Shown here: in pieces, positions 6,997 to 36,225 of the stretch
Numbering within the stretch: position 1 is the stretch's first letter
Layout: each line of letters opens with the position of its first letter
Source: a virus
Length of the DNA stretch: 64,000 nt
Virus record (IMG/VR): IMGVR_UViG_3300025133_007837
Span: 69,840 to 133,839 of that record
Direction: 5' to 3' (one strand)
Translations under genes and position numbers: made by a program
The notes under the pieces: generated by a model
Database searches by the model: none
Seen by the model: only the letters and a program-made list of their open reading frames with translations
Told to the model about the DNA's origin: nothing

Positions 6997-7025
6997 TTGA
7001 CAAGTAGTTCAGCTTGTGCTATTAT
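6997..7025 (+). promoter_or_regulatory. sigma70-type promoter, leaderless
   Basis: TTGACA-N17-TATTAT with TG extension; ATG at 7032. Confidence 0.75.
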
Positions 7026-7031
7026 ATATAT

Positions 7032-7298
7032 ATGTCAACGATGACCAGAAAGAAAGGATCGGGCCGAACTAAAGGCGCGACAAGCCTCATCGAAGTCAAC
7101 CTACGAGAGCTTAACCGTGTCTTGCGCGAGGACGCTATCGTTATGGTTGGAAGGAAGTACGCCGAGCAACTCGGACTTCAGACAGGCAATCGTATCATAT
7201 CTAATTATGCGAATGTGTCTGCCGCCGCGCCAGTTGAGGTCAAAGAGACTGCCCTTGAGGAAGAATCTCAGGTCGCAGTAAAAAGCATTGACTTTTAA
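7032..7298 (+). CDS. hypothetical protein with basic GSGRTKG motif (possible DNA binding)
   Basis: ORF after a promoter; start revised to ATG 7032. Confidence 0.7.
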   Translation: MSTMTRKKGSGRTKGATSLIEVNLRELNRVLREDAIVMVGRKYAEQLGLQTGNRIISNYANVSAAAPVEVKETALEEESQVAVKSIDF

Positions 7299-7322
7299 TC
7301 AAGTAACTGTTAAGATAGACTA

Positions 7323-8252
7323 ATGGATACGACTACATTCCCCGACATAATCGGGCAAGAAAGCGCGAAGCGTGTACTGGATTTCCATATTGGAGGATTC
7401 AAAGCTACTTCAGTAATGCCTCACCTCATGTTTGTCGCGCCCAAGGGTTGCGGCAAAACGACGATGGCAAAGGCAGTTGCTCGTACACTCAAGGGTATTG
7501 ACGATGCCAAACGGTACTTTGAGATTAACTGTTCTACGATTAAGAATGTAAAGCAGTTCTTTAATCAGTTGGTTATTCCATTGATGCAGGACAGGGACGC
7601 TACCATCCTCTTTGATGAGGCAAGTGAGATTCCCAAGGATGTTTCGATGGCCATGCTGACCATCCTTAATCCAAACTCCGAGAATCGTACTTCGTTCTCC
7701 TTTGAGGACTATACGGTAGATTTTGATTTCAGTCGGCTATCGTTCATGTTCGCCACAACTGAAACTCAATCCGTATTTCATGCCTTGATGGACAGATTAG
7801 AGCGTGTTGATCTTGAGGAATACTCTATTGAGGAGATGGGACAGATAGTTGCCTTGAATCTCGACATAGACATTGATCCAAAAACATTACAGGATATCGC
7901 CTCTGTCTTGCGCGGCAATGCGAGAGCAGCACAAAAAATGGCTCATAAAATTGAGTCTTATTGCAGTCAGAAAAAAGTTAAAAGATTTGATTCAACTCAT
8001 TGGAAAGAATTGAGCAGAATCTTAAACATATTTGCACTTGGCTTAAATGTTACTGAAATCCAGTTGCTAAACATATTGAAAGATCACAAAGATTGTAGTC
8101 TTACTAATTTGTCTGCAAAAACTGGTATCAGCAAAGCAGCAATTCAAAGAGATTTTGAAATCTACTTGCAGAAGCATTCTTTAATGGAGATAACAACTGC
8201 TGGAAGAAACATAACAGCAAAAGGTTTGGATTATTTAAAACTAATTGCTTGA
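7323..8252 (+). CDS. RuvB-like AAA+ ATPase (Holliday junction branch-migration motor-like)
   Basis: F.DIIGQE start, Walker A PKGCGKT, Walker B FDE, ATT sensor, RGNAR, C-terminal winged helix ending GRNITAKG. Confidence 0.8.
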   Translation: MDTTTFPDIIGQESAKRVLDFHIGGFKATSVMPHLMFVAPKGCGKTTMAKAVARTLKGIDDAKRYFEINCSTIKNVKQFFNQLVIPLMQDRDATILFDEASEIPKDVSMAMLTILNPNSENRTSFSFEDYTVDFDFSRLSFMFATTETQSVFHALMDRLERVDLEEYSIEEMGQIVALNLDIDIDPKTLQDIASVLRGNARAAQKMAHKIESYCSQKKVKRFDSTHWKELSRILNIFALGLNVTEIQLLNILKDHKDCSLTNLSAKTGISKAAIQRDFEIYLQKHSLMEITTAGRNITAKGLDYLKLIA

Positions 8253-8277
8253 CTTTGAGTTCAGGTACTGGTATAAT
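8249..8277 (+). promoter_or_regulatory. sigma70-type promoter
   Basis: TTGACT-N17-TATAAT with TG extension. Confidence 0.8.
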
Positions 8278-8326
8278 TAAGAAGTAGTCAGGGAAAGGCC
8301 CAGACAAAAAAACAGACGAATAAATT

Positions 8327-8524
8327 ATGGGTATGCGCAATCATACATATAGGTTGGAGGTTCAACGCCAGACTGGCGGAGGCCTGAAAGTCGTGACCGC
8401 TGAACAGTTGGTCAAAATCAATCAACACTCTCATGCATATGAGACAGTTGATAAGGCGGCGTTTGCCGCTACCATGAACGGCCCCAAGGCCGCTCGACGC
8501 ACGGTTCCGCGAAAACGGAGCTAG
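8327..8524 (+). CDS. hypothetical protein
   Basis: ORF between a promoter and a structured RNA/terminator. Confidence 0.65.
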   Translation: MGMRNHTYRLEVQRQTGGGLKVVTAEQLVKINQHSHAYETVDKAAFAATMNGPKAARRTVPRKRS

Positions 8525-8530
8525 GCGTTA

Positions 8531-8607
8531 GGAGACTTCGGCATGGTGCTGCGCGAGATGCGCGGACGGGGTTTGTAGGTTACCCTAGTGAAACACCGGA
8601 GTTCTCC
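8531..8607 (+). ncRNA. candidate structured RNA motif, copy A (P1-CAUGGUG-P2[GAGAU]-AC-P3-NN-UGAAACA-P1')
   Basis: Same junction sequences as 10355-10439(-), with different but compensating stems. Confidence 0.7.
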
Positions 8608-8646
8608 CCCATTTCCCCCCCTGAGTAGTAGTTGATAGTTCATTCG

Positions 8647-8675
8647 TACCCCCGCTTCGGCGGGGGTATTTTTTT
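8647..8675 (+). terminator. Rho-independent terminator
   Basis: TACCCCCGC-TTCG-GCGGGGGTA followed by a T-tract. Confidence 0.9.
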
Positions 8676-8749
8676 GTCCACTTTCCCCATTTTTTCCAAA
8701 TAAGGCAAATAAAGGGCTATCTTATTATACTATAATCTTTTAGGATCCT

Positions 8750-8824
8750 TAAGTCACTGACAGTCAACGAGTTACGGCGCGCGCCTCCCCCCCGCGCGTA
8801 ACCTCTTGAGTACCAAAGACTTAC
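8750..8824. repeat. 74-bp bipartite palindromic element, copy 1 (inverted relative to copies 2-8)
   Basis: TAAGTCACTGACAGTCAACGAGTTAC, then a C-tract spacer, then GTAACCTCTTGAGTACCAAAGACTTAC. Confidence 0.9.
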
Positions 8825-8929
8825 GCCTCCCGTAAAACGAGAGGCGTGTCAAGCTTTTATTTAAAGGGAGGCAGGGGAGTAGTAACCGTGATAGTGCCCA
8901 TCAAAGTCTCCCCCACCTCCCACGTGCCG

Positions 8930-9817
8930 CTAAGAGGTCACTAAGACATCGTCAGATTTGGTGACGGGCTTGCGAGTGAGCTTCGCAAAGAACGCCTTGT
9001 CCTTCGCTGCCTTCGTCAGCTTCTTGAGGATGGTCTCATTGACCTTGCTTGCGTATTCGTACCGGTCGTTTTGCACGGCAGTACGATTCTTACCACTTGT
9101 CAGGTGCTGGGTTGCAGCATTATACAAGTTGTAGAGGTTCCGAGCCTCGTCCTCTTTGTAAGTGGGATTTATCCATATCTTGGAAATCTCCTCACGCAGA
9201 GAGTTGCTCAGTACCTTAGAATCACGTAGATTCTTGAGGATGAAATCCCCGATGGTGTTGTCGATCTTGGTCTCAGCTAAGAGACCGTAGTCTTCACCGA
9301 TTGTATCGAATGCTGTTAGAGCAGAGTCGATAGCCCTAGACACTCCGCTCAGGTCGAGCTTGCTGGAGTGTTTCTGGTTGAAGGTGTACGTCGAGCGTAA
9401 AGCCTTCATGCCGTTGGTGCATACCTCGCGCAACGCTGCCAAGTCCAAGCCTGCGAAACAGGATCGGTCGTAGGAGTTGCGCCCTGTAATACGCATACCG
9501 ACGGTATCGCCTACACCGGGAACAGCGATGTTCTTTCCGGGCAGGTCGTACGTTGCGTACATGGTAGCACCATCACGCGCCACCCTGACTTCCTTGTTAT
9601 AGTCTAAACCTTTGTCGGTTAAGACTGACTCGATAGAGTCAACCAAGGTTGAGTTTAGCAACAAGCCATACTTGTCACTCGTTACACCTAGCACTTGGCC
9701 GGTGTCTGTCCTGCGCGTTCCCCAAAAGCCAGCATCGCTGCCGTCTTGGGTTTGCAGTTGCTCCATAACTACAGGGAAGTCGTAGTTGCCGCTTGTTGGT
9801 CTTGTTGTTCTTGCCAT
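8930..9817 (-). CDS. DUF932/DUF945-like phage protein
   Basis: RTDTGQVLGV...Y, NSYD, R.VCTNGM and NLYNLYNAAT motifs. Confidence 0.75.
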   Translation of the reverse strand: MARTTRPTSGNYDFPVVMEQLQTQDGSDAGFWGTRRTDTGQVLGVTSDKYGLLLNSTLVDSIESVLTDKGLDYNKEVRVARDGATMYATYDLPGKNIAVPGVGDTVGMRITGRNSYDRSCFAGLDLAALREVCTNGMKALRSTYTFNQKHSSKLDLSGVSRAIDSALTAFDTIGEDYGLLAETKIDNTIGDFILKNLRDSKVLSNSLREEISKIWINPTYKEDEARNLYNLYNAATQHLTSGKNRTAVQNDRYEYASKVNETILKKLTKAAKDKAFFAKLTRKPVTKSDDVLVTS

Positions 9818-9855
9818 AACGTCTTTTTATATATTAACAGTTACTGTATTGAAAG

Positions 9856-10068
9856 TCAAGATAATAATTCTTTTATTCGGTTAGCATTTAAAATTCCATC
9901 AAGCTCATGCTCAATTTCTTTAGCCAGCTTAACTTCTGATGGTTCATACAATTCGTGCCACTTGATAATGGCCATGCATTTACCTTTTAGGCCAGCCACC
10001 TTGCAGCGTAAGGATAGGATTTTGTCTTGCGCTTCGTGTAGTTTCTTTAGGTTTTCTAACTCGCTCAT
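9856..10068 (-). CDS. hypothetical coiled-coil protein
   Basis: ORF with its own TTGACT-N17-TATAAT promoter at ~10075-10103. Confidence 0.7.
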   Translation of the reverse strand: MSELENLKKLHEAQDKILSLRCKVAGLKGKCMAIIKWHELYEPSEVKLAKEIEHELDGILNANRIKELLS

Positions 10069-10119
10069 GTCTTAATTATAACAGTAACTTTATTGAAAGT
10101 CAAGCTTTTAAATTTAAAT

Positions 10120-10180
10120 AGTTGGTGTCGATTAACGTCTGCAGCGGCTAACCGAAGGTGAGCTATTCCCGCACCAACTT
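10120..10180 (-). ncRNA. candidate small structured RNA with a dedicated promoter
   Basis: Closing stem AGTTGGTG/CACCAACT; promoter TTGACT(10214)-N17-TATACT(10191-10186) directly upstream; no ORF. Confidence 0.55.
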
Positions 10181-10232
10181 TAATAAGTATAGCACATTCT
10201 GACGCTCAAGTCAAGCCTTAATAGTGATGTCT

Positions 10233-10307
10233 TAAGTCGTTGAGCATCAAGGACTTACGCGCGGGGGGGAGGCCGCGGCCGTAACTCTCTGATTACCAAG
10301 GACTTAC
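10233..10307. repeat. 74-bp bipartite element, copy 2
   Basis: TAAGTCGTTGAGCATCAAGGACTTAC-GCGCGGGGGGGAGGCCGCGGCC-GTAACTCTCTGATTACCAAGGACTTAC. Confidence 0.95.
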
Positions 10308-10312
10308 AAGAC

Positions 10313-10351
10313 AAAAAAAGGGCGAGGGGGGCGAAACAAAACCCCCCTCGC
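10313..10351 (-). terminator. Rho-independent terminator
   Basis: GCGAGGGGGG/CCCCCCTCGC stem followed by a T-tract on the - strand. Confidence 0.75.
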
Positions 10352-10354
10352 ATT

Positions 10355-10439
10355 CCGGGCACGTGTGGCTGTTTCATGAGGCACCTGAACCGTCCACCTG
10401 TATCAGGATCTCCCTGATCACCATGGCCACTGAGCCCGG
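10355..10439 (-). ncRNA. candidate structured RNA motif, copy B
   Basis: GTGGC-CATGGTG-ATCAGG-GAGAT-CCTGAT-AC-AGGTG..TGCCT-CA-TGAAACA-GCCAC on the - strand. Confidence 0.7.
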
Positions 10440-10456
10440 ATGGGTTCAGAAAAGCG

Positions 10457-10891
10457 TCACGCCTTTACGGCGTCCCAGTCGCTTAAGTCTTCAGCCGAAA
10501 TCGAAAGCTCTTCGTGAATGTTGAGTTCCGGCGTACGCATTTTGTGCGTGTACAGTTCTTGCGTGTACGGAATGGAGTCGATGAATTCCTTTGCCCAATC
10601 GACCGCCAAGAAGTCTGCTCCGCCCTTCTTGCCCTTAAAGACTTCGCCGCCGAGGTCTTGGATGCAGCGCGTGCGGTAGATGTCGAGAACAGCTTTGCTG
10701 AAGCGTTTCTCGTCTGTCCAGAATACAGCCAGCTTGTCCGTGCGCCAGTCAAGCTCGCCGTTCGTAGCCATCCAGTTGTAGAAGGCGTAGTAACGTCTCG
10801 TCATCTCCTCTTGGTCGCTGCCCTCCATGCCGATGATCAGGCTGTCCTCGTCGATAACCTGCCGATAGTAGTTTATTTTTTCGCTAAACAT
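10457..10891 (-). CDS. hypothetical protein (GC-rich cassette gene)
   Basis: ORF with an upstream sigma70 promoter at ~10940-10969. Confidence 0.75.
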   Translation of the reverse strand: MFSEKINYYRQVIDEDSLIIGMEGSDQEEMTRRYYAFYNWMATNGELDWRTDKLAVFWTDEKRFSKAVLDIYRTRCIQDLGGEVFKGKKGGADFLAVDWAKEFIDSIPYTQELYTHKMRTPELNIHEELSISAEDLSDWDAVKA

Positions 10892-11077
10892 TTGTTTTTT
10901 AGTTTTTCAATTGCTGCTTTTCCCCAGCAGCGATAAGAGTATTATTGCATATTTTAGAGCTAAAGTCAAGTCTTTTTTTATCTTTTTATATAGTCGTTTA
11001 GCCAGAACACAACAAAAATTGATAGAACGAAAAGTATGATACCCATTTCTTTATAATATAGGAAACTTGACGGGCTG

Positions 11078-11713
11078 TCAATGTTTTTTGTAGTCAATGT
11101 TTTCGACTGTTTCATCCCAACAGGCTCGACAGTCTTTGCAGCTATTGTCTTGCTTTGGTGCTGGGCAGGTAAAACTTTCGTCAGTTTTCGCTCCGCTCGT
11201 GGTCAAGCCTAAACGACTTGCCAAGGCGGTTGGCGGTGCGCCGTCCATCATAATTGCAGACAATCGAATGATAAGATTGTCAGGCTTACGGCCTAGTTTC
11301 ATCCATTCGCTGACAAAGGAGTATTCCCTAGTCGGCAGCCAAAATTTAATGTGAGGCAACCGCCTTGCAACCTCTGCAATCTTTTCGAGATGCCAAACGC
11401 CCTGAACGTCACCAGCATCATGCCAACGAAAAAAGCCAGTCTTTTCCCTTTTCCCGATCATAAAAACCATCATGTCCACCCAATCAATTTGGTCTAATGA
11501 TTTAAGCCGTTTCTTTTGCGCGGCCTTTACGTTAGGAAAAACATAACGTCCTTTGCGAGCGTAGCAAAAAGAACAAATCGAATTGATAACCTCGACCAAC
11601 TTCGAACCCCTGATACAGTCCTCTGCTGGTGTGCTGTAACTAAAGCCGGGCATCTTCGACGGCACGGAAAGTGAACCAACGCGCCCCTCTGCAAGTTTGA
11701 TAGTAAGTCTCAT
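11078..11713 (-). CDS. GP88-like phage protein (Cys-rich, radical-SAM-like fragment)
   Basis: SKMPGFSYSTPA, C..CYA, FRWHDAGD, WLPTRE, CPA...C..CRACW. Confidence 0.75.
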   Translation of the reverse strand: MRLTIKLAEGRVGSLSVPSKMPGFSYSTPAEDCIRGSKLVEVINSICSFCYARKGRYVFPNVKAAQKKRLKSLDQIDWVDMMVFMIGKREKTGFFRWHDAGDVQGVWHLEKIAEVARRLPHIKFWLPTREYSFVSEWMKLGRKPDNLIIRLSAIMMDGAPPTALASRLGLTTSGAKTDESFTCPAPKQDNSCKDCRACWDETVENIDYKKH

Positions 11714-11748
11714 AACGCGAAAGAGTATAGCAGATTAAGCCTCACTTG

Positions 11749-11991
11749 TCAAGCCCATAATTTAGCCCAACCCTCAGGGCTGTATCCGCTGGCTACGAAC
11801 TCCCTATCATCCGCACTTAAAGACTTAAGCGCAACCTGTAGCAGCTCGCCCTGATTCAAGTCCCAAAGCTCATGCCCTAATATTGTCACACTATAGGGCT
11901 TGCCGGTTCCCCGACACGGGCCGGTGAATGTATAGGTTCCCTCTGTGTGGTTCTGCTCGTAAGTGCAGTTTGTATGTATATAACGTCCCAT
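11749..11991 (-). CDS. conserved phage hypothetical protein
   Basis: Q.AL..LSADDREF..SG.SPE.W pattern; own promoter. Confidence 0.7.
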   Translation of the reverse strand: MGRYIHTNCTYEQNHTEGTYTFTGPCRGTGKPYSVTILGHELWDLNQGELLQVALKSLSADDREFVASGYSPEGWAKLWA

Positions 11992-12019
11992 AACGCGAAA
12001 CAGTATACCAGATTAAAGG

Positions 12020-12139
12020 CTACTTGTCAAGCCCTTTTTTTCTATCATATGACCCTTTTCCCCTTTTAGGTTTGTGTACGCGCTCGCCTGTGTTCCACTT
12101 GACGCGCTTTCGAATAATAGGTTTCCTTTTCTCACTCAC
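12020..12139 (-). CDS. small basic peptide with ArfA-like KGKGSYxRK motif, not in the ORF track
   Basis: GTG start; MSEKRKPIIRKRVKWNTGERVHKPKRGKGSYDRKKGLDK; promoter immediately upstream. Confidence 0.6.
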   Translation of the reverse strand: MSEKRKPIIRKRVKWNTGERVHKPKRGKGSYDRKKGLDK

Positions 12140-12192
12140 TTTATTAATAGTAACACAAATTTTGCGACATGTCAAGTATTTTTTTTATGTTA

Positions 12193-12266
12193 TAAGTCGT
12201 TGAGCATCAAGGACTTACGCGCGGGGGGGAGGCCGCGGCCGTAACTCTCTGATTACCAAGGACTTA
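12193..12266. repeat. 74-bp bipartite element, copy 3 (identical to copy 2)
   Basis: Exact match to 10233-10306. Confidence 0.95.
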
Positions 12267-12559
12267 GGACAAGAGAAAACCCCCCACCAAGGAAAACCAA
12301 AAACCTCGGCAGGGGGGTCACGTTATGAGTGAAAAGTATTTAGGAAACCTGTTACATTTTTTGAAGTGCTACTTCTAACTAGGTGCTAACGTAGGTAGTA
12401 TTTAGGTTTCCTAAGTTTCGAGTTGCTGCCGCACCACCAACAGTAAAACGGGCGTGTGAAATCTGGCTGGATTCTAGCACACAGGGGTATTTAACTCCGT
12501 CAACTCTAAATCGTTCTGACTGTCACGCTGCGTTTAAAGCGTAGCGTCAGATTGGGTAG

Positions 12560-12814
12560 CTAGATCGCTACCGTGCTGTTAATTCTATCCCAGCGGAATC
12601 GCTTCCACAATCCAGAATCGGCATCTTTTGCAGCCATGCCAGCGGAATTGTCGTTCTCGCTTCGGTTTGCGAACTGTTCATCCATTTCTACGCGGTAGAA
12701 AAAGGATTTGCTGCTGTCGTTTTCCTGTCCTTCATGGACAGCCGGTGTATAGTTTATTAGGAACTTCTTCATAACTTTGTTTTTTATTTGTTTTTTATTC
12801 TTCTTATTTCTCAC
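12560..12814 (-). CDS. hypothetical protein
   Basis: ORF; start either GTG 12814 or ATG 12772. Confidence 0.65.
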   Translation of the reverse strand: MRNKKNKKQIKNKVMKKFLINYTPAVHEGQENDSSKSFFYRVEMDEQFANRSENDNSAGMAAKDADSGLWKRFRWDRINSTVAI

Positions 12815-12852
12815 TTCCAATAAATTAAGTATACCACAAACTGCACTACAAG

Positions 12853-13203
12853 TCAAGCCTTTTTAACAAATATTTCTTTGTTTTTGATAAAAACCTTCTC
12901 ATAAATACCACGCATCTCATTACCCTTAAGATCAACAAAAAAGTCATTCTTATAAGGGTTGTACTTGACAAGCTCAAACTCCTCGACAGTACCATTGCCA
13001 AAGCTTTGCTTGCTGGCCAAGTCACCAGCGACGTAAGCGTGAACGTTTTTACGTTTGGTCTTCCGTACCTTGGCTAGTCCTGCTGGCTGAACATGGAACT
13101 TCACGTTTTCCAGCGCGACAATATCAGCGTGTTTAATGACTTTGCCTCTATTACGAACCGAGAGGCGTTTCTTATGTAGATTGTAGTAAACCTGTACTCT
13201 CAT
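12853..13203 (-). CDS. conserved phage hypothetical protein (VYYNLHK...RKNVHAYV)
   Basis: Recognisable widespread phage protein pattern; own promoter. Confidence 0.75.
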   Translation of the reverse strand: MRVQVYYNLHKKRLSVRNRGKVIKHADIVALENVKFHVQPAGLAKVRKTKRKNVHAYVAGDLASKQSFGNGTVEEFELVKYNPYKNDFFVDLKGNEMRGIYEKVFIKNKEIFVKKA

Positions 13204-13227
13204 AACTTTTATTAGTATAACACGAAC

Positions 13228-13485
13228 TTAAGCACTTGTCAAGCACTCATGCCAATATTCATTGATCTCTTTTCGGAGTTCGTACTCGTCGAGTCGATTG
13301 CTCCAGCACTCACGCATGAAGTCATCAAAGCCGGGGTCTTTCGTCAACGAGGCAACGATACCTGAGTATCTTTCGTGTTCAGACTCTATGTTATAGAGTT
13401 TAATCATGAGGTCATCACAAAACTCTTCCCAGCTAGTATTTAATATCGATATAATAGATCTTCTTTCCCTAACAACCATAAGCAT
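13228..13485 (-). CDS. hypothetical protein
   Basis: ORF after a TTGACA-N17-TATGAT promoter. Confidence 0.6.
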   Translation of the reverse strand: MLMVVRERRSIISILNTSWEEFCDDLMIKLYNIESEHERYSGIVASLTKDPGFDDFMRECWSNRLDEYELRKEINEYWHECLTSA

Positions 13486-13571
13486 ATCATAGCATAAAAT
13501 ACGAAATATGTCAAGACTAAATACGACAAATATAGATTTTTTTTTCGTTTATAGATTTTTTTTCGTTTGCG

Positions 13572-13645
13572 TAAGTTACTGACTGTCAAGGAGTTACGGG
13601 TGGGGGTGGGGCCGCGAGCCTAAGTCATTGGTAATCAACGACTTA
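13572..13645. repeat. 74-bp bipartite element, copy 4
   Basis: TAAGTTACTGACTGTCAAGGAGTTAC...TAAGTCATTGGTAATCAACGACTTA; arms 49 bp apart. Confidence 0.9.
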
Positions 13646-13805
13646 GGAGATCACTAATTGACCCGAACCCACGATTAAAAGCCACGCGCTCGGTGCGCGC
13701 CTTCCTGACCCGCTGACGCTCCACCTTGGCGGCGGTAGCGTTAGCCCGTTCCCGTTTCCAATTCTCAACATTTTTGAGAATGGTCTCATTAGTATTTTGA
13801 GGCAT
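13635..13805 (-). CDS. small basic hypothetical protein, not in the ORF track
   Basis: 56 aa MPQNTNETILKNVENWKRER...; stop codon lies inside the repeat arm. Confidence 0.55.
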   Translation of the reverse strand: MPQNTNETILKNVENWKRERANATAAKVERQRVRKARTERVAFNRGFGSISDLLSR

Positions 13806-13858
13806 AAATTTAAAAGAGCGTCACGCTGCGTTTAAAGCGTAGCACTCAAAACGACGGC

Positions 13859-14179
13859 TCAAAAGCCATCGTTGTAATCGTCGTAGCAACCGTAGTCCTC
13901 GTCGGTTCCCCAACCCGCGCTGGCCAACGCATCTGCGTCAGCTTCGGCGTCGGAGTTGAAGCCGTCCCAAGGCTCGTCTGCCTCGGAGTCGCCAGACTCC
14001 TCAAATGACCAGACCGTTTCTGTCTCGCCATCACGTTCGCGCATTACGTCGGCGTTGATGCCGTTGGCGAACTCAATCGCGTCCTCAAGCCCGTCATGGC
14101 TCACGTCGAACATACGGAACAAACCGTCCTCATCCTTAACGTAGTAGTGGTTATTCATGTTATTATTTCTCTCACTCAC
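13859..14179 (-). CDS. acidic hypothetical protein (DADALASAGWGTDEDYG motif)
   Basis: Conserved phage C-terminal motif; start GTG 14179 (MSER) or ATG 14158. Confidence 0.75.
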   Translation of the reverse strand: MSERNNNMNNHYYVKDEDGLFRMFDVSHDGLEDAIEFANGINADVMRERDGETETVWSFEESGDSEADEPWDGFNSDAEADADALASAGWGTDEDYGCYDDYNDGF

Positions 14180-14192
14180 TGGTAAAATGGTA

Positions 14193-14390
14193 TCACACTT
14201 TAGGGACAAAGTCAAGCCCTTTTTCAACTTTTTTTTCACTTTTTTTTCGCGGAACAAACGCCTTGCTGACTGGCTCCTCGCGTGGGATAAATGGGTGCTT
14301 TTTCTTTGCGACTTCTGCGAGAGCGTGTGGCGACCACCGCGCTCCGTAAACCTTGGACATTGTTTTTTCGTTGTTCATTCTCTCACTCAC
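14193..14390 (-). CDS. small basic hypothetical protein
   Basis: GTG-AGT-GAG-AGA start after a promoter. Confidence 0.55.
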   Translation of the reverse strand: MSERMNNEKTMSKVYGARWSPHALAEVAKKKHPFIPREEPVSKAFVPRKKSEKKVEKGLDFVPKV

Positions 14391-14454
14391 TGGGAATATG
14401 ATAGCACACTTTGCCGAGGATGTCAACACCTTTTTTCACTTTTTTTTCATGTCG

Positions 14455-14528
14455 TAAGTCGTTGACTATCAGTGACTTGCGCGGCGCAAGGGGGTGGCTA
14501 CCCTAAGTTCCTGATACTCAGAGGCTTA
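14455..14528. repeat. 74-bp bipartite element, copy 5
   Basis: TAAGTCGTTGACTATCAGTGACTTGC...TAAGTTCCTGATACTCAGAGGCTTA. Confidence 0.85.
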
Positions 14529-14542
14529 GCAATAGTAAAATC

Positions 14543-14716
14543 TTATTTCTTACCGAAACAAGTGGGGCAAGACTCAAAAAATTTACACCAACAAACCTCT
14601 TCGGCGTCCTGCGCGAAAACAGCCTCGTCCTGCCATTCATCACACACCGCATCAAACTCTGCCCGCGCTTGCGGATCAGCCTCGAAAACCTCCTCACAAC
14701 TAATCATATCTCTCAT
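14543..14716 (-). CDS. small acidic Cys-rich hypothetical protein
   Basis: Single-gene cassette between copies 5 and 6; MRD start. Confidence 0.6.
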   Translation of the reverse strand: MRDMISCEEVFEADPQARAEFDAVCDEWQDEAVFAQDAEEVCWCKFFESCPTCFGKK

Positions 14717-14782
14717 AACAGAAAACAGTATAACACAAACGACGAGAATGTCAACACTTTTTTTACTTTTTTTTTCATAGCG

Positions 14783-14857
14783 TAAGTTGTTTACCATCAA
14801 GGAGTTACACGCGGCATAGGGGCCGCGGCCCTAACTTGTTCTGGATCAGTTACTTAC
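14783..14857. repeat. 74-bp bipartite element, copy 6
   Basis: TAAGTTGTTTACCATCAAGGAGTTAC...GGCCGCGGCC-CTAACTTGTTCTGGATCAGTTACTTAC. Confidence 0.85.
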
Positions 14858-14863
14858 AACTCA

Positions 14864-15133
14864 TCAGAAAAGATCGAAGTTGAACGGGACGAGAAGAGCT
14901 TTATCGAACCAAGTTTGTGGGACGACTTTACACTCTACATCTTCAAGCCATGCGTTCGTGTGGCGCGATGTCGTTTGGCTGAATTTGTCTTCGCAACGGT
15001 AGTATGTCGTGCCAATCTTGGCAGCAACAGGCGTTCCGTAAGAGAAGAAAAAAACAGCGTGTTTTGCTCTGTCCGATAGTCTATCATTGAAGTGGACTTC
15101 GGTTTGGTTTGTTGCTATTAGTTTTAGTCTCAT
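14864..15133 (-). CDS. conserved phage hypothetical protein (FFSYGTPVAA...SQTTSRH)
   Basis: Widespread early phage protein pattern. Confidence 0.75.
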   Translation of the reverse strand: MRLKLIATNQTEVHFNDRLSDRAKHAVFFFSYGTPVAAKIGTTYYRCEDKFSQTTSRHTNAWLEDVECKVVPQTWFDKALLVPFNFDLF

Positions 15134-15176
15134 TAGATAAAGTATAACAGTTTATTGTTTAAAAGTCAAGCGTTTT

Positions 15177-15356
15177 TTAGGTTTCGTGACAGTCGCACTC
15201 TTCGCAAATGACGCCCCAGTCGTATGGGTTGCCCCATTCTCGGACTTCGTTTTCTTTGCTGTCTTCTGCTTCGCATAGATCGCAAGTCAGCACCTTACCC
15301 GTGAAGCGGTCAAGTGTTTGCCCTGCTTCGTTTGTTTTGTATATCTTCTTTTCCAT
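15177..15356 (-). CDS. small zinc-finger-like protein
   Basis: CDLC...CEEC. Confidence 0.6.
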   Translation of the reverse strand: MEKKIYKTNEAGQTLDRFTGKVLTCDLCEAEDSKENEVREWGNPYDWGVICEECDCHET

Positions 15357-15357
15357 T

Positions 15358-15633
15358 TTAGTAATTATCTTTGTGAAATCTACCCTTGGGCGATCTATCC
15401 TCAAAGCACTTGGTTATCTCAACGACTTGGAGAATGTCTCCGTATTTTGTCGTGTTGTTAACTTTTTGTTCAAGGAACTGGTCAGTCATCTCCTGCTTGG
15501 TTGTACCAAGCGGGAAAGTGTTACCCATAATTGAATCACAGGTGGCAAGGTAATGATTGCCCGTGTAGTTAGGGTTTCGCTTCACCTTAAAGGTGGCATT
15601 CAGGAAGTTTATGTATTCTTTATTATCTCTCAT
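15358..15633 (-). CDS. hypothetical protein (ends RSPKGRF)
   Basis: MRD start after a promoter. Confidence 0.65.
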   Translation of the reverse strand: MRDNKEYINFLNATFKVKRNPNYTGNHYLATCDSIMGNTFPLGTTKQEMTDQFLEQKVNNTTKYGDILQVVEITKCFEDRSPKGRFHKDNY

Positions 15634-15686
15634 AACGCAATTAGTATAGCAGATTTTCGGTAAAAGTCAAGCTTTATTTCACTTTT

Positions 15687-15872
15687 TTATTCGCATTCGT
15701 GGCATTGGAACCAATCGGTGTCAGTCCATTCATTGGCCTCTTCGCGGCTAATGCGAAGCTCTTCGCCGCATCCGCAGCAGGACACCAGCACCTTGTCGGT
15801 GGTCACTTGGCCATTGTCGATTGGGTGAACTATTTCGTTAGTATTCATATTCATTGTATTTCTCTCACTCAC
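15687..15872 (-). CDS. small zinc-finger-like protein
   Basis: CCGC...CHEC; MSER start. Confidence 0.6.
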   Translation of the reverse strand: MSERNTMNMNTNEIVHPIDNGQVTTDKVLVSCCGCGEELRISREEANEWTDTDWFQCHECE

Positions 15873-15946
15873 TGGATATAGCTTACCAGAAAAATCGGTA
15901 AAAGTCAAGCACTATTTTCACTTTTTTTTACTTTTTTTTATTACTG

Positions 15947-16021
15947 TAAGTTACTGATAATCAAGGACTTACGAGCGCCGGAAGGGCCGCGGCCGTAACT
16001 TATTGATTACCAAGCAATTAC
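15947..16021. repeat. 74-bp bipartite element, copy 7
   Basis: TAAGTTACTGATAATCAAGGACTTAC...GGCCGCGGCC-GTAACTTATTGATTACCAAGCAATTAC; overlaps the stop of the 16007 ORF. Confidence 0.9.
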
Positions 16022-16318
16022 AACTCTAAAGAAACACTTTTCTGGCGGCAACTCTTTCCAAGTCCAGTAAGGCGAAGTCATCGACATTTTGTAAGTTCCG
16101 AGATGGACTAAATCTTTCCATTTTCTTAAATCTTCAGAATATTGCAATTTATACATTATAAATGGTTCAAGATTCGTTAATTCAAAATAGATACCGCTTT
16201 CTAAACCATAAGCATTACCATTTGGCAAAACCTTTTGTTGAACAGGAACAATCTTTAAAGTCGGGTTAGCATTTAAGCTAACAGAGAATAAGAATAGAAA
16301 AAGGATAATTTTTTTCAT
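16007..16318 (-). CDS. secreted hypothetical protein
   Basis: Signal peptide; YKLQYSEDLRKW...FFRV pattern. Confidence 0.7.
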   Translation of the reverse strand: MKKIILFLFLFSVSLNANPTLKIVPVQQKVLPNGNAYGLESGIYFELTNLEPFIMYKLQYSEDLRKWKDLVHLGTYKMSMTSPYWTWKELPPEKCFFRVVIAW

Positions 16319-16819
16319 TTAGAGTTTATAGAATGCGTGTTGACCAATCACCTTAACGGGCTTCTGTCCCTTGGCCCAGTAAGGCTTCTTTTTCATCCAT
16401 GTGGCATGGTAGTGGTTAGCATAGCCAACATAGTCACGGCTCAACAGCTTAACACTCTTGGCCAAGCGTAGTGCGTACTTGGCTTGCGGTGTCTTGAGTA
16501 GATGCTCAAGGCTCTTGATGCTCTTGCCATTCCAGCAACTGAATTGCCATTTGGCACGGCATACCTGCTCTGGTGTCTGGTGTCGCTCCATTGCTCGCTG
16601 TGCTATAACAGCAGCCACGGCATACATGCCCTTGTTGCCTTCGCCTCTAGCTTCTGCCAGTATGGTGATGGCTACTACCTTATGCTCTTGCGTATGCTCT
16701 TGCCCTGCTACCTTGCATATGGTAGCCATGCCCCATAGTACAGCAAGCACGATGAGTAGCTTCTCTACTGTATAGTTTTGATGTCCGTATTTCATTAGGT
16801 TTGGTTTCTTGTATTTCAT
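16319..16819 (-). CDS. SleB-like cell wall hydrolase (Hydrolase_2)
   Basis: AEARGEG..GM.AVA.VI..R, QFSCWN, ANHYH, P.WA, IGQH.FY; N-terminal TM segment. Confidence 0.88.
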   Translation of the reverse strand: MKYKKPNLMKYGHQNYTVEKLLIVLAVLWGMATICKVAGQEHTQEHKVVAITILAEARGEGNKGMYAVAAVIAQRAMERHQTPEQVCRAKWQFSCWNGKSIKSLEHLLKTPQAKYALRLAKSVKLLSRDYVGYANHYHATWMKKKPYWAKGQKPVKVIGQHAFYKL

Positions 16820-16824
16820 TTGAC

Positions 16825-17016
16825 TTAACTCCAATTCCATTCTGGTGCGTTTCCTTTGTATGGCTTACTCAAGCGGATTGCTTCGAGTGCCTCATTAACC
16901 AGACGCTTATGGTTGCGTGCTTGTGTTTGTGCTGCCTCAAGACGCTTGAGCGCGTCAGGCTTGGGCTTACTTATCATCTTTCTGGCCATTTGGTATGCTG
17001 TCATTCTCTCACTCAC
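16825..17016 (-). CDS. hypothetical protein
   Basis: MSER start after a promoter. Confidence 0.6.
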   Translation of the reverse strand: MSERMTAYQMARKMISKPKPDALKRLEAAQTQARNHKRLVNEALEAIRLSKPYKGNAPEWNWS

Positions 17017-17070
17017 TTGTTATATGGTATCAGATTTTAGGCTAAAAGTCAAGCTTTATTTTCATCTTTT

Positions 17071-17304
17071 TTACCCTTGGTAACGGTAGCTTCCCAGTAG
17101 ATCACCGCCCCAACCGGAGGCGATCTCTTGGCCGTCTCTTTCCAGCACCCATGGCCACATGTTGCCGTCAGCCTCTTGGGCTAGTTCGAGGGCTGCGTCC
17201 ATTGCTGAATGGTCTTTGCCTTCTTCGCCTGTGAACTTCTTGCTGCTCACGCGGTTGGTATCTTCGTTCTTCCAACTTAATTCGTATAACATCTTATCTC
17301 TCAT
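17071..17304 (-). CDS. hypothetical protein
   Basis: MRD start after a TTGACT-N17-TATACT promoter. Confidence 0.65.
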   Translation of the reverse strand: MRDKMLYELSWKNEDTNRVSSKKFTGEEGKDHSAMDAALELAQEADGNMWPWVLERDGQEIASGWGGDLLGSYRYQG

Positions 17305-17380
17305 AACTGGATATAGTATAGCACAATCCCCGCAAAAGTCAAGCGTTATTTTCATTTTTTTAAAAAAAGTTTTAGTGTCG

Positions 17381-17456
17381 TAAGTCATTGAGTATCAGAG
17401 ACTTACAGCGGCGGGCAGGGTGAGCCTCGCTAACTCTTTGAGGCTTAGTGGTTTAC
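17381..17456. repeat. bipartite element, copy 8 (most diverged; arms 50 bp apart)
   Basis: TAAGTCATTGAGTATCAGAGACTTAC...TAACTCTTTGAGGCTTAGTGGTTTAC. Confidence 0.8.
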
Positions 17457-17457
17457 G

Positions 17458-17649
17458 TTAGTCTTCGCAAAGACCTTCGTAGCCGAACCACCCACAGTCC
17501 TCCTCCACCGGCGAGGCGAAGTCGTGCTGCTGCATCTCTCGTGGGTCGATGCGATACCCGTCGTGCGAACCCTCAACGGGCGTGACGACCTGTTTGTCAT
17601 CCTGCGCGTTGAGCCAATCGATGTGTTGGTTCTTCATTCTATCCCTCAT
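17458..17649 (-). CDS. small acidic hypothetical protein
   Basis: MRD start after a TTGACA promoter; stop abuts repeat copy 8. Confidence 0.6.
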   Translation of the reverse strand: MRDRMKNQHIDWLNAQDDKQVVTPVEGSHDGYRIDPREMQQHDFASPVEEDCGWFGYEGLCED

Positions 17650-17867
17650 AACTGGTAAAATGATAGCACAGGTTGAGACATATGTCAACAATAAAGTGGG
17701 GGTATTTATGAAAAAAAACACGACACAATAGTCTTGACACGACGGGGGTGGCCCTTTTTTCAGTCTCCCCGAGCCTTCTAAGGGTTTCTAATTTACAACT
17801 TCGAAAAAATCCGCGGCTATATATAGAAAAAAAGCGCTTCTGATATATAAAATGTGTAAAAGTTGAT

Positions 17868-18026
17868 ATGACGCCTTTTGTAGACCCGGAGATAGTCAAA
17901 GATGCCGAAGAAAAAGATCTAGAACGGGTTATAATAAAAGGGGAGAGAGTGCTTGAAGTTTGCACCAATCCAAAATGCTTCGAAGACACATGTAAAGGTG
18001 AATGTGAATACAGTGAAGACGAGTAA
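17868..18026 (+). CDS. small Cys-rich protein (CTNPKCFEDTCKGEC), not in the ORF track
   Basis: 52-aa ORF 9 nt after GTGTA; motif shared with 28883-29029. Confidence 0.7.
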   Translation: MTPFVDPEIVKDAEEKDLERVIIKGERVLEVCTNPKCFEDTCKGECEYSEDE

Positions 18027-18049
18027 TACAAGTGCAGAAAGGATAAATA

Positions 18050-18238
18050 ATGCCAATACCAAACCCCAAAGGAGAAGAGAAGAGTGAATTCTTGAATAAA
18101 TGTATGGGAGACGACGTAATGACTACAGAGTTCGCTGACTCTAAACAAAGATACGCGGTCTGCCAATCCAAATGGAAAAAATCAAAAAGCGCCGAGTATA
18201 CCCCAGAAGATAAAGATTCCCAAGTAGTTATCTACTAA
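18050..18238 (+). CDS. conserved small phage protein (MPIP.P...EFL.KCM...QRYAVC)
   Basis: Recognisable phage domain. Confidence 0.75.
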   Translation: MPIPNPKGEEKSEFLNKCMGDDVMTTEFADSKQRYAVCQSKWKKSKSAEYTPEDKDSQVVIY

Positions 18239-18735
18239 TGGACATCAAGACAATAGATAATAAGGGACTTAAGGAATTAGTGTCCCTACGCTTCCCCAAT
18301 AATCAGAAAGATCCAACTACAGACAGAGACTACGCGTATCTAGACTTAGATTGGGTGGAAAACGAAGCCTACCAAGGCTACAAACACTGGTTGTCTTTGT
18401 TCAACTTTGGTAGAGGCATACATAACTCTGACTGGAAGCCCAACTTTGACTGCGAGGACTTAGCCAACTCATTTAAAATATATTTAAAGCTGCTGCACGC
18501 GGAAGCCAACCCTTATACTTTCTCTGAGCGCAGAAAAGGTAAGGAGAACCTCGTAAATACAGAATCAGCTTTAGTGGGGACAATCTTCTATAGAAACTCA
18601 ACAATGAGCGCTCACTCAATAAACGTTTTCTTTGACGACGAAGAAGACTCGCCCAAATTCTTTGAGCCGATGTACGGCAAGTTTATAAACCTTAACCAAA
18701 ACGAACAGGACAGCATATGGTACGTAGAATTTTGA
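18238..18735 (+). CDS. papain/transglutaminase-like cysteine protease fold protein
   Basis: FDCED...HSIN...FFEP triad-like pattern. Confidence 0.55.
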   Translation: MDIKTIDNKGLKELVSLRFPNNQKDPTTDRDYAYLDLDWVENEAYQGYKHWLSLFNFGRGIHNSDWKPNFDCEDLANSFKIYLKLLHAEANPYTFSERRKGKENLVNTESALVGTIFYRNSTMSAHSINVFFDDEEDSPKFFEPMYGKFINLNQNEQDSIWYVEF

Positions 18736-18823
18736 CAAAATTATTTGGAATCAAAGCCCTTGAGGACTATAAACAAAAGGTTGTATTAAAACCCAAGTAC
18801 CTTAAAGTAAAGGACTCTCAAAA

Positions 18824-19009
18824 GTGACCGAGGCACAACGAAATAATGAGGTCGTCTGTAGGACGAACAGCCTCATAACTATGCTAACCTGCTTCAATAA
18901 CCAAATCATAAGAAAACCCGAAGAAGTACAAGAAACTTTGGAAAAAATTCAAGCTGAGACTCAAAACTATAAAGACAGGATCGCTAAATGTTCCGATCTT
19001 ATAAATTAA
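18824..19009 (+). CDS. hypothetical protein
   Basis: ORF; start uncertain. Confidence 0.5.
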   Translation: MTEAQRNNEVVCRTNSLITMLTCFNNQIIRKPEEVQETLEKIQAETQNYKDRIAKCSDLIN

Positions 19010-23532: not shown

Positions 23533-23630
23533 CTTTGCCTACTGTACAAAAAGACACAGGGAATTTAACAGGATCTACTAATATATAGGGTTTTCTATGG
23601 GTGGCATTATTTCTGCTTTATAGGAACCTA

Positions 23631-24845
23631 ATGGAAGACGTAAAATTCATCATAGATAACCTTTGGGTTCTAATATCAGCTTTGTTGGTATTTATTATGC
23701 ATCTGGGCTTTTCTAGCTTAGAAGTCGGCTTGACAAGACAAAAGAATACAGTAAATGTTTTGTTCAAGAATCTTTTTATTATTAGTATTGGTTTAATCAG
23801 TTATGCTTTAATAGGTTTTAATACAATGTATCCCGGTGAGCTATTTAATGGCTGGCTGAGTATAGGGGGGCCTATTGGCTTTTCAGATGATACTGCAAAT
23901 CTAACAAAAGCATATGCTGACTATACATATTGGACAGATTTTCTGTTTCAAGCTATGTTCGCAGCAACAGGAGCAACAATAGTATCAGGGGCAGTAGCGG
24001 AGAGGGTAAAATTATCTTCTTTCTTATTGTTTGCTACTTTATTAGTTGCTATTGCTTATCCTATAGCTGGAGCTTGGAAATGGGGAGGAGGATTCCTAGA
24101 TAAAATGGGATTTTATGATTTCGCAGGTAGTAGTGTCGTGCATGCCTTCGGAGGGTTTGCTGCCTTAGCTTGCGCTTGGCTTTTAGGGCCTAGGGCAGAT
24201 AAGTATAAGGACGGTAAAATAAACGCTCTACCGGGCCATAGTATGCCTTTAGTGGCTATTGGCGTCTTCCTACTGTGGTTTGGTTGGTATGGGTTCAATG
24301 GGGGTAGCGTATTAAGCGCAGATCCCGCCTCTGTATCCTTTGTATGCGTTACGACATCCCTTTCGGCTGCAGCCGGTGCTCTATCTGCGATGCTTTTCTC
24401 TTGGTTTAAATCAAAGAAGCCAGATTATACTATGACAACGAATGGCGTGCTAGCCGGATTAGTGGGCATAACCGCAGGGGCAGATGTAGTTAGCGTTTGG
24501 AGTGCATGCGCAATCGGGGCTATCGCCGGTATTATATTGTGCTTCGCTTCCTCTTTTATTGAGAGGGTGATTAAGATTGACGATCCAGTCGGTGCTATCG
24601 CTGTTCATGGAGTGTGTGGCGTATGGGGAACGGTTGCCGTAGGCATATTTTCTTCAGAGCATTCAATACTGATTCAATTATTTGGAACATTAGTAATAAG
24701 TTTATTTTCTTTCTTGTTTTCTTTGTTAGTATTTGGTAGTATTAAAAAGGTATTAGGGGTTAGAATAAATGGTGAGCTAGAAGCTAAAGGGTTAGATCTT
24801 TTAGAACATGGCCATACTGCTTATCCAGACTTTCAAGTAAGTTAA
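23631..24845 (+). CDS. amtB: ammonium transporter (Amt family)
   Basis: FQAMFA, SGAVAER, DFAGSSVVH, WFGWYGFNGGS, NGVLAGLVGIT, DDPVGAIAVHG; twin His retained. Confidence 0.96.
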   Translation: MEDVKFIIDNLWVLISALLVFIMHLGFSSLEVGLTRQKNTVNVLFKNLFIISIGLISYALIGFNTMYPGELFNGWLSIGGPIGFSDDTANLTKAYADYTYWTDFLFQAMFAATGATIVSGAVAERVKLSSFLLFATLLVAIAYPIAGAWKWGGGFLDKMGFYDFAGSSVVHAFGGFAALACAWLLGPRADKYKDGKINALPGHSMPLVAIGVFLLWFGWYGFNGGSVLSADPASVSFVCVTTSLSAAAGALSAMLFSWFKSKKPDYTMTTNGVLAGLVGITAGADVVSVWSACAIGAIAGIILCFASSFIERVIKIDDPVGAIAVHGVCGVWGTVAVGIFSSEHSILIQLFGTLVISLFSFLFSLLVFGSIKKVLGVRINGELEAKGLDLLEHGHTAYPDFQVS

Positions 24846-35276: not shown

Positions 35277-36225
35277 GTCTCTAAGTGAATGTATGAAAAT
35301 GGAGTTTGTCTGTAAAATAGACGGAAAAAAATTCGAAACAGAAAAACAGCTCCATATGTATCTCAGAAAGTATAAGATGCGTATGGCTGAGTATTATCAA
35401 AAGTATTATCCTAGGAGAGATTTACTTACTGGAGATTTAATTAAATTCAAAAATAAAAGTCATTATTTTTCTAATTATTTTAATTCAAGACCTAACATGA
35501 AGAAATACCTCGAGTCGGCCTCTGAAGAAGACGCTAGAAAATTTTGTGTTCAAGTAATCAAAGACAGGATAATGAGAAGGAAAATTAAGTATTCTCCTAC
35601 TCAAGTTGAAATGAGGTCTTCCATGATGCCGCCTATTTTTTATTATCAAAAGCTGTTTGGTAATTACTACGATCTTTGTTATGAGCTTGGACTATTAAAA
35701 AGATTTAAAAGAGTTCCTAAAAATAAAATCAAAGAAAGTATAGAAGAAGGCTATGAAATCATTGTTGATACAAGAGAGCAAAAGCCATTAAATATAAACT
35801 ACGGCACAAGAAGAGAGGGTCTGAAATTTGCGGATTATTGGCTCGATAAAGAGAACAATAAGTGCTTCGTAGAAAGAAAAGAGACGAAAGACTTTATAGG
35901 TACTTTTACTGGCGGTTGCGAAAGATTTTCTAGAGAGCTAGGGAGAGCAAAAGAGCAGGGCGCTTATGTCGTAGTAGTTGTTGAAAACTCTTTAGATAAC
36001 ATGATGAAATTTAATTACCTAAAGTATATCACAAAGAAGGTTCAGGTAACCCCAGAGTATGTGATGAGAAATGTTCGAGACATAATACAAAATCATGACA
36101 ACGTACAGTTCTTATTTGCAAAAGGAAGAACAGAAGCTACTAGGTTAACTAGGAAGCTTTTCTTTTGTGGTCAAAACTATAAAAATGTAGATCTACAGCT
36201 AGCTTATGATCTTAATCTATTGTAA
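35269..36225 (+). CDS. ERCC4/XPF-family nuclease with N-terminal zinc-finger-like region
   Basis: IIVDTREQKP, ADY, VERKE..DF, RF.REL.RA. Confidence 0.75.
   Translation: MDKSLSECMKMEFVCKIDGKKFETEKQLHMYLRKYKMRMAEYYQKYYPRRDLLTGDLIKFKNKSHYFSNYFNSRPNMKKYLESASEEDARKFCVQVIKDRIMRRKIKYSPTQVEMRSSMMPPIFYYQKLFGNYYDLCYELGLLKRFKRVPKNKIKESIEEGYEIIVDTREQKPLNINYGTRREGLKFADYWLDKENNKCFVERKETKDFIGTFTGGCERFSRELGRAKEQGAYVVVVVENSLDNMMKFNYLKYITKKVQVTPEYVMRNVRDIIQNHDNVQFLFAKGRTEATRLTRKLFFCGQNYKNVDLQLAYDLNLL

Follow-up and report, generated by a model that had tools for sequence, protein, structure and literature searches.

The closest described counterparts of the elements discussed here are the promoter early stem-loops (PeSLs) of T4-type phages, in which a sigma70 early promoter and an AT-rich tract are combined with a G/C-tract stem-loop. 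According to the two papers on them, PeSLs occupy hyperplastic regions and serve homologous exchange without a recombinase, and both terminator activity and mini-circles have been shown (PMC2839356, PMC4122927). We have analysed a 64,000-nt stretch of an uncultured virus (IMG/VR record IMGVR_UViG_3300025133_007837, positions 69,840 to 133,839; this whole stretch is called the window below), which contains an array of eight elements in a comparable setting. Each consists of two 25-bp palindromes (the arms) around a GC-rich spacer, and together they divide a block of early-type genes into cassettes. We read them as PeSL-like boundary modules with paired symmetric sites of predicted integration host factor (IHF) type, to which a nucleoid-type protein of the host probably binds; the modules would be exchanged by general recombination. 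We give this reading a probability of roughly 0.5.

As far as PeSLs are described there, our elements share with them a strong sigma70-type early promoter with an upstream AT-rich tract (present at copies 2-8), a G/C-tract core within a hyperplastic region rich in orphan genes, and the exchange of cassettes between relatives with no dedicated recombinase found. They differ in that two conserved symmetric sites of 25 bp flank the GC core, sites which do not figure in the available descriptions of PeSLs, and in that an element accompanies only 8 of about 20 promoters. Nor is the phage T4-like: no cultured phage has a terminase with more than about 25% identity to its own, the value seen for Bacillus phages, and its elements are known from sequence alone. 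The pair of symmetric, putative IHF-type protein sites around a GC core would be the feature that is new with respect to PeSLs.

A second parallel concerns repetitive extragenic palindromes (REPs) and bacterial interspersed mosaic elements (BIMEs) of enterobacteria. In these, palindromes form intergenic pairs whose linker has a fixed length (and in BIME-1 contains an IHF site), and binding of IHF and gyrase is reported together with roles as terminators, mRNA stabilisers or supercoil insulators (PMC3333891). The likeness, which lies in paired palindromes with a linker, intergenic position and high copy number on a bacterial chromosome (see below), is one of form only. REPs, as described there, are GC-rich hairpins with a 5′ GTAG, whereas our arms lack GTAG and show no hairpin covariation. 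The layout is also reversed, with the IHF-like sites outside and the GC core inside, and no association with REP-associated tyrosine transposases (RAYTs) was found.

IHF sites also occur upstream of strong phage early promoters such as lambda pL and Mu Pe, where they are single and asymmetric. Here too an IHF-type word lies tens of base pairs upstream of a strong early promoter with A-tracts, but as part of a unit that occurs eight times and in which two predicted palindromic double sites enclose a GC core.

The array and its relatives in other phages

A degenerate arm pattern allowing up to three mismatches matched 15 times in the window, all within 8750-17405, against 0.60 matches expected; none of 100 shuffles reached 15. 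These matches comprise both arms of copies 1-7 and the first arm of copy 8, whose second arm (17431) has more than three mismatches and is decayed, yet still recognisable by eye. The eight two-palindrome elements listed in a preliminary description of this DNA are therefore real. Alignment of the copies also bore out the distance of 49 bp between arm starts (50 bp in copy 8) and the GC-rich spacer with its G-tract, which is 24-25 nt long (25 nt in copy 8). Seven of the elements are oriented on the minus strand: copies 2 (10233-10306), 3 (12193-12266), 4 (13572-13645), 5 (14455-14528, an arm-pattern match), 6 (14783-14856, with a degenerate second arm), 7 (15947-16020) and 8 (17381-17455). Copies 2 and 3 are indeed identical across all 74 bp of arm, spacer and arm. 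What the preliminary description had missed is that copy 1 (8750-8823) is the reverse complement of the others. The spacer is G-rich with a G-run on the plus strand in copies 2-8; in copy 1 it is C-rich on that strand, and copy 1 sits where plus- and minus-strand genes converge. When the nine elements of a close relative, G001, are included, the RNA-like strand carries the C-run in 17 of 17 elements, also in the plus-oriented first element of either phage.

The position of the elements relative to genes and promoters is equally regular. The elements partition a minus-strand block of about 23 small genes (8930-17721), mostly without known family. Genes end in or beside the arms, as had been described: the stop codons of the open reading frames (ORFs) 13635-13805 and 16007-16318 lie inside the second arm of copies 4 and 7, and the stops at 14543, 14864 and 17458 are 3-15 nt away from a second arm. 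The claim that a sigma70 promoter follows on the far side held for copies 2-8, with a weak site at copy 7. A minus-strand sigma70-type promoter preceded by A-tracts is found 19-59 bp to the left of the first arm, hence downstream in the sense of transcription. Except at copy 7, these promoters match the consensus at 10-11 of 12 positions: 10186-10214 at copy 2 (10/12, extended -10), 12147-12175 at copy 3 (found by motif search), 13486-13514 at copy 4 (11/12), 14398-14426 and 14727-14754 at copies 5 and 6 (both 11/12 and preceded by A-tracts) and 17315-17342 at copy 8 (10/12). The site at copy 7 (15880-15908) has a good -35 and a weak -10 box and was seen by eye, being absent from the motif-search list. 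In all, some 20 strong minus-strand promoters of the TTGAC-17-TATAAT type, most with an extended -10, are packed into 9 kb, and there are only eight elements. The early region contains a single strong minus-strand intrinsic terminator (10351-10322), just upstream of copy 2 in the sense of transcription, with an 11-pair stem and a T-run. The plus-strand genes have their own intrinsic terminator (8646-8669) upstream of copy 1.

The array is a trait of one broad group of uncultured phages. The preliminary description had proposed to scan related phages for the arms, and similar arrays do exist in at least 84 IMG/VR loci. The exact arm was found in at least 117 loci, and a looser scan of 197 IMG/VR loci plus the window yielded 273 paired elements in 84 of the 198 sequences. 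Start-to-start distances fall into classes of 41-42, 46-53 (mode 50) and 58 bp, corresponding to spacers of about 16-33 nt across lineages with a mean GC content of 0.80. In G004, 13 of 13 sites lie within 105.2-116.5 kb, and in G005 18 of 19 lie within 85.1-93.3 kb, so that each genome has one array of 8-11 kb. Genes that these loci have in common with the window encode PhoH (30 loci), a sigma-like protein (22), an ERCC4 nuclease (19) and an L5 gp82-like protein (19), mostly at identities of about 30-60%. In other lineages a -35-like word seems to be in use, with no clear -10 to accompany it. In L129 and L136, which belong to the 50-51 and 58-bp lineages, such a word follows A-runs and faces the element from a distance of 24-33 nt, in L136 on both sides; a clear -10 is not seen in either.

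Symmetric protein sites or hairpins

Each arm could be conserved as a hairpin in RNA or as a symmetric site in DNA, and the two predict different behaviour of its halves. Our collection comprised 472 distinct arms, which belong to 266 distinct elements. At each mirrored pair of positions, Watson-Crick combinations are as frequent as the product of the column frequencies predicts: observed and expected values are 0.55 and 0.54 for positions 4 and 22, 0.40 and 0.37 for positions 7 and 19, and 0.66 and 0.69 for positions 8 and 18. Mutual information between mirrored positions does not exceed 0.04 bit, G-T combinations are as frequent as A-C, and there is no excess of pairing between arm and arm either. 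The halves of an arm thus vary independently under one position-specific consensus, which points to symmetric protein sites and not to selected hairpins. Of the two roles considered in the preliminary description, paired binding sites for a dimeric protein would fit best, given the independence of the halves and the occurrence of the same palindrome in Bacteroidota.

The bacterial copies came to light when we searched 185,579 species, each represented by one genome, with the paired-arm pattern. The search found 15 stretches, 14 of them in metagenome-assembled genomes (MAGs) of Bacteroidota; the holders are Microscillaceae (8), Saprospiraceae (3), Cytophagales (3) and Flavobacteriaceae (1, a locus with a phage-like look). 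A phage fragment that had been binned into a different MAG accounts for one further contig, L209 (hydrolase at 70% identity). Counting single palindromes over whole genomes with at most one mismatch, and the reversed pattern as control, gave 2548 sites against 3 in G007, 155 against 1 in G010, 44 against 1 in G009, 27 against 1 in G011 and 5 against 0 in G008. The scan of bacteria that had been suggested therefore turned up a high-copy palindrome in a few Bacteroidota genomes, where it is a lineage-restricted repeat. G007 is a Microscillaceae genome, and the contigs examined are chromosomal, encoding transporters, a peptidase and a TonB-dependent receptor. Of the 107 sites in a 155-kb sample, 93 are located outside long ORFs, and here too the halves vary independently. 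The positions that the search had left free show the preferences of the phage arms (Y8, T12, W13, A14, R18). Pairs of palindromes 44-50 bp apart also occur, with AT-rich spacers, and the copies occupy tandem, convergent and divergent intergenic regions alike. In the literature searched we found no description of this palindrome family of Cytophagales-type genomes. The simplest reading would be a single protein specificity common to these bacteria and used by the phages. In the Saprospiraceae genome G011 we also observed two palindromes 60 bp apart (L243, 1941-2025) that flank an A-run, a GC hairpin and a T-run, i.e. a bidirectional terminator, in the same layout as the phage element.

The consensus itself gives a hint as to the kind of protein. 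Starting at the central W, which both halves have in common, either half runs outwards as W-A-T-C-A-R, then four variable bases and T-T-A, so that two inverted copies of WATCAR-N4-TTA make up the arm length (13 + 13 - 1 = 25). We take WATCAR-N4-TTA/TTR to be the consensus of IHF sites, and the string does turn up alongside IHF in a literature listing. Both halves of the arm fit WATCAR-N4-TTR at every specified position. At those positions of the word that the search left free, agreement is 0.46-0.99 in the phage arms (0.99 for R18/Y8, 0.84 for W13, 0.56 for A14 and 0.46 for T12) and 0.85-1.00 in G007. Genes for HU/IHF proteins are present in all five palindrome-bearing Bacteroidota genomes. 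A likeness of the core to the Fur box was considered and rejected, with only 11 of 19 positions agreeing by eye with that box and copies numbering in the thousands.

We propose the following working model. In the order of transcription, each module (symmetric site, GC core, symmetric site) comes after the stop codon or intrinsic terminator that closes one early unit and ahead of the next unit's A-tract and sigma70-type promoter. A host-encoded dimer, IHF/HU-like or of another nucleoid type, would occupy both arms and bend the DNA around the stiff GC core, while the same core could form a stable stem-loop in the transcript. Bound arms and core stem-loop together might insulate against read-through or attenuate it, and set up the next early promoter. 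If so, some 20 strong early promoters within 9 kb and with almost no intrinsic terminators would be kept apart by means of a borrowed host DNA-bending protein. The PeSL principle, in which regulatory repeats double as substrates for gene exchange, would then extend to an unrelated and very abundant group of marine phages. More tentatively, one may imagine that a host nucleoid protein reads one doubly inverted IHF-type word of 25 bp, common to these phages and a few Bacteroidota lineages, and that the phages pair it around a GC clamp as protein-bound insulators that render cassettes independent and exchangeable; the elements would then represent a new kind of chromatin-like boundary in phages.

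A number of observations weigh against this model. Sixteen positions of the phage arm were fixed by the search pattern (within three mismatches), and their conservation is partly there by construction; since only positions 6-8, 12-14 and 18-20 were free, it is these that carry the argument for protein sites. Positions 5 and 21 are conserved, yet unspecified (N) in the IHF word. About 7 bp separate the two mirrored CA steps, and not 9 bp, the distance presumably kinked by a single IHF dimer; an arm would therefore have to be two mirrored alternative IHF-type sites, with one dimer unable to use both. No HU/IHF gene was found in three phage relatives, so that the binder would have to be encoded by the host. 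In the wider set of phages, the strict promoter motif stands beside only 35 of 268 elements, and the G/C skew of the spacer is not linked to ORF direction, as judged by a crude ORF-based test. On the bacterial side, 297 of 300 other Bacteroidota genomes are at background (0-2 sites), and part of the copies in G007 lie inside repeats resembling miniature inverted-repeat transposable elements (MITEs), whence their number may reflect transposition. Promoters of the classical TTGAC-17-TATAAT kind, as found in the phage, are not known to be typical of Bacteroidota. There is no enrichment of the -7 motif of that phylum (2 of 24, background 6%), and the ammonium transporter gene of the window (23601-24845, plus strand) is 54-62% identical to Bacteroidota and 54-60% identical to another class. 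Finally, single elements fold better than their shuffles on all nine strands tested (z -2.2 to -4.2), with one long hairpin, arm 1 paired with arm 2, as the preferred predicted fold.

This last observation favours the main rival, which we nevertheless think unlikely: that the elements act in RNA, where arms and core would fold as three hairpins or as one and would terminate or attenuate transcription, be processed in the manner of RNase III sites, or stabilise the 3′ end. REP hairpins and the early RNase III sites of T7 are parallels that come to mind. The elements follow directly after stop codons, their orientation agrees with transcription in 17 of 17 cases, and a single strong intrinsic terminator for about 20 promoters leaves room for such a function. 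Spacers of the 58-bp class fold better than shuffles (mean z -2.3) and contain a 6-bp GC stem, a short loop and a T-run; those of the 42-bp class are weakly better, and the Saprospiraceae pair mentioned above flanks a bidirectional terminator. The spacers of the window's own class of 49-50 bp, however, have z near 0, the GC core being nonetheless stable when folded, and no U-run follows the window elements. When 16 distinct copies, taken from the window and from G001, were put to a formal covariation test with 500 shuffles, selected pairing received no support. In the three-hairpin model 76.1% of cells were paired, compared with 77.1% in the shuffles, of which 444 of 500 reached at least the observed value; for the long-hairpin model the figures are 75.0%, 76.0% and 424 of 500. 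About 24% of the stem cells are unpaired, and positions 7 and 19 pair in only 40% of the arms collected. Wobble pairs in the 16 window arms show no strand bias either, with 18 G-T on the plus and 15 on the minus strand. The indifference of the bacterial copies to the arrangement of the flanking genes is likewise hard to reconcile with a role in RNA.

A symmetric protein site need not be read by a host protein. The arms could be operators of a phage-encoded dimeric or tetrameric regulator, used for instance in early shut-off, in which case the bacterial copies would belong to regulators derived from mobile elements or prophages. The signature of sequence-recognised symmetric sites would be the same, the sites are restricted to the early region, and the many small early ORFs without known family could hide a regulator. 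We consider this rather improbable, as scans of 30 window ORFs detected no DNA-binding family, sites and promoters are separated by a variable distance (19-59 bp), and 2548 chromosomal copies in one bacterium would be hard to account for. The array gene most widely shared, the L5 gp82-like gene, was rejected as the specific binder because its family is very broad (1139 matches) and not peculiar to these phages; the gene has no relative in the PDB.

The abundance of the palindrome in G007 raises the further question of whether it is a selfish REP- or MITE-like repeat that has spread in phage and bacterial genomes with no role for the phage. In G007 it occurs, besides its very high copy number, within MITE-like units of about 150-200 bp that have terminal inverted repeats and hold three palindromes each (L202, L203, L206, L208 and L216). 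It is lineage-restricted among Bacteroidota, and four of the five palindrome-bearing genomes contain Y1 transposase genes. These genes are not flanked by palindromes, though, none was found in the phage relatives, and hairpin covariation of the kind that REP/RAYT systems need is lacking. Moreover, the phage elements keep to one region, to their place between gene end and promoter, to their orientation and to a lineage-specific spacing, even among relatives whose shared proteins are mostly only about 30-60% identical, which makes a purely selfish origin very unlikely.

Exchange of cassettes

The preliminary description had held that invariant gene order in relatives would speak against a shuffling of cassettes. 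In G001, whose flanks have 75-90% identity with the window, the cassettes differ by inversion, exchange of places and loss. The first element of G001 is the counterpart of copy 1, with the C-run on the plus strand followed by a plus-strand promoter, and the DUF932 gene between its first two elements is on the opposite strand with respect to the window. The convergent junction has moved from the first to the second element, which is what an inversion between elements of opposite orientation should produce, and one of the breakpoints lies inside an element. The DUF932 gene of G001 is also preceded by a homologue of 11749-11991 instead of 9856-10068. The hydrolase cassette and the cassette of gene 17071 have changed places, with an extra element between them, and gene 16007-16318 is absent.

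Joints between sequences that are separate in the window were also detected in assembled contigs of four metagenome runs, 15 among those listed and 34 further. Since 85% likeness sufficed for calling them and their short sides measure 21-45 nt, they may show related phages and not variants of one clone. The joint of 14764 to 17458, both element edges, was seen in three runs; contigs do break at the elements, which repeats would lead one to expect. Elements with 20 bp on either side cover 9.9% of the region, and promoters and leaders 16.2%. The 26 ends of synteny blocks between the window and G001 fall at elements in 10 cases, at promoters or leaders in 10 and elsewhere in 6, whereas the 26 ends of 13 joints (two intragenic indels left out) are distributed 4, 15 and 7. 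Breakpoints are therefore as frequent at promoters and leaders as at elements, or more frequent.

These data allow the proposal of the preliminary description that the elements are recombination sites to be judged in its parts. That cassettes are inverted, reordered, gained and lost is correct; the analogy with PeSLs, i.e. homologous exchange, stands, and that with an integron-like site-specific system does not. Integron attC sites and the hix/gix sites of invertases are imperfect inverted repeats at cassette borders, and our elements resemble them in this respect and in the inversion between oppositely oriented copies; they differ in that no integrase or invertase was found, in that cassettes have their own promoters, in the lack of folded-strand covariation and in the breakpoints at promoters. 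The statement that the window contains no recombinase is valid for the 30 ORFs scanned with Pfam, some small ORFs lying outside the scan. The search beyond the window that had been called for found no resolvase or integrase, be it of the serine or the tyrosine recombinase type, and no Y1 transposase in five phage relatives, two of which are rated 100% (G004, 170 kb) and 99% complete. Dedicated attC- or invertase-like sites for the excision, inversion and insertion of cassettes are thus the least probable of the explanations considered, and a very doubtful one, since the roughly fourfold enrichment of synteny-block ends at elements (10 of 26), the inversion with a breakpoint inside an element, the joined element edges and the composition of an arm from two inverted 11-bp half-sites are outweighed by the lack of an enzyme in these relatives and in the window ORFs scanned, the preference of joint ends for promoters and leaders, the separate promoter of each cassette, a 3-bp centre presumably too short for tyrosine recombinases and the dispersal of the same palindrome as a chromosomal repeat.

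As to the exchange foreseen in our model of boundary modules, modules and promoters together provide dispersed homology of 75-150 bp, over which the general recombination of the phage could exchange cassettes. A RuvB homologue (7323-8252, plus strand, aligned over its full length) is encoded beside the array, while the terminase gene has that of an ERCC4-domain nuclease (35269-36225, plus strand) as its neighbour. They suggest that the phage carries its own toolkit for branch migration and structure-specific cutting, and might form part of the recombination setting.

The phage, its host and its early transcripts

The window is phage DNA. Besides the genes already mentioned it encodes a collagen-like tail fibre, PhoH, a sigma-like protein and two tRNAs; most structural proteins have no PHROG match. 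IMG/VR holds 387 relatives of the terminase, and the 9-kb stretch is present in near-identical form in 20 marine metagenome runs from 19 studies, with no RNA run among the holders listed. Megablast of the 9.1-kb array region against cultured phages gave no match, and blastn of one element gave chance matches only (E = 9). Neither the DUF932 protein nor an exact 25-mer from copy 2 found a relative or a match, respectively, in IMG/VR, and in an Rfam scan of 7000-19000 nothing came close to any gathering score.

The evidence on the host of the phage points in two directions, the palindrome linking it to Bacteroidota and the type of its promoters being contrary to this. The palindromic word could still be a route to the host and to the DNA-binding protein of a phage clade without cultured member, and on the more tentative reading given above it would be a host clue drawn purely from sequence. 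The ammonium transporter gene was rejected as a means of assigning the host because its similarity does not discriminate between the candidate phyla. Shine-Dalgarno-like words precede 8 of 24 late genes (background 17%), a weak signal which we left unused. The terminase of the phage was not found in the palindrome-bearing MAGs. Phage contigs with element arrays have been binned into bacterial MAGs in several instances (L209, L212, and C152 and C176 of G312); of the MAGs holding such contigs, one is titled Enterobacterales and one Flavobacteriaceae. All 23 sites of G312 are on two phage-like contigs, and this genome gives no host link.

Some features of the early transcripts deserve mention. 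Many genes of the minus-strand block (8930-17721) are nearly leaderless and start 3-12 nt past the -10 box, and others begin after a leader of about 30 nt that is conserved and rich in purines but lacks a ribosome-binding word. Between the promoters 10186-10214 and 10075-10103 lie about 80 nt with an inverted repeat (10104-10185, minus strand), which may be a small RNA or a leader. Copy 3 is separated from the next gene by about 290 nt (12270-12555) without a convincing ORF, a stretch that G001 has replaced by unrelated sequence; its first 50 nt resemble an intrinsic terminator.

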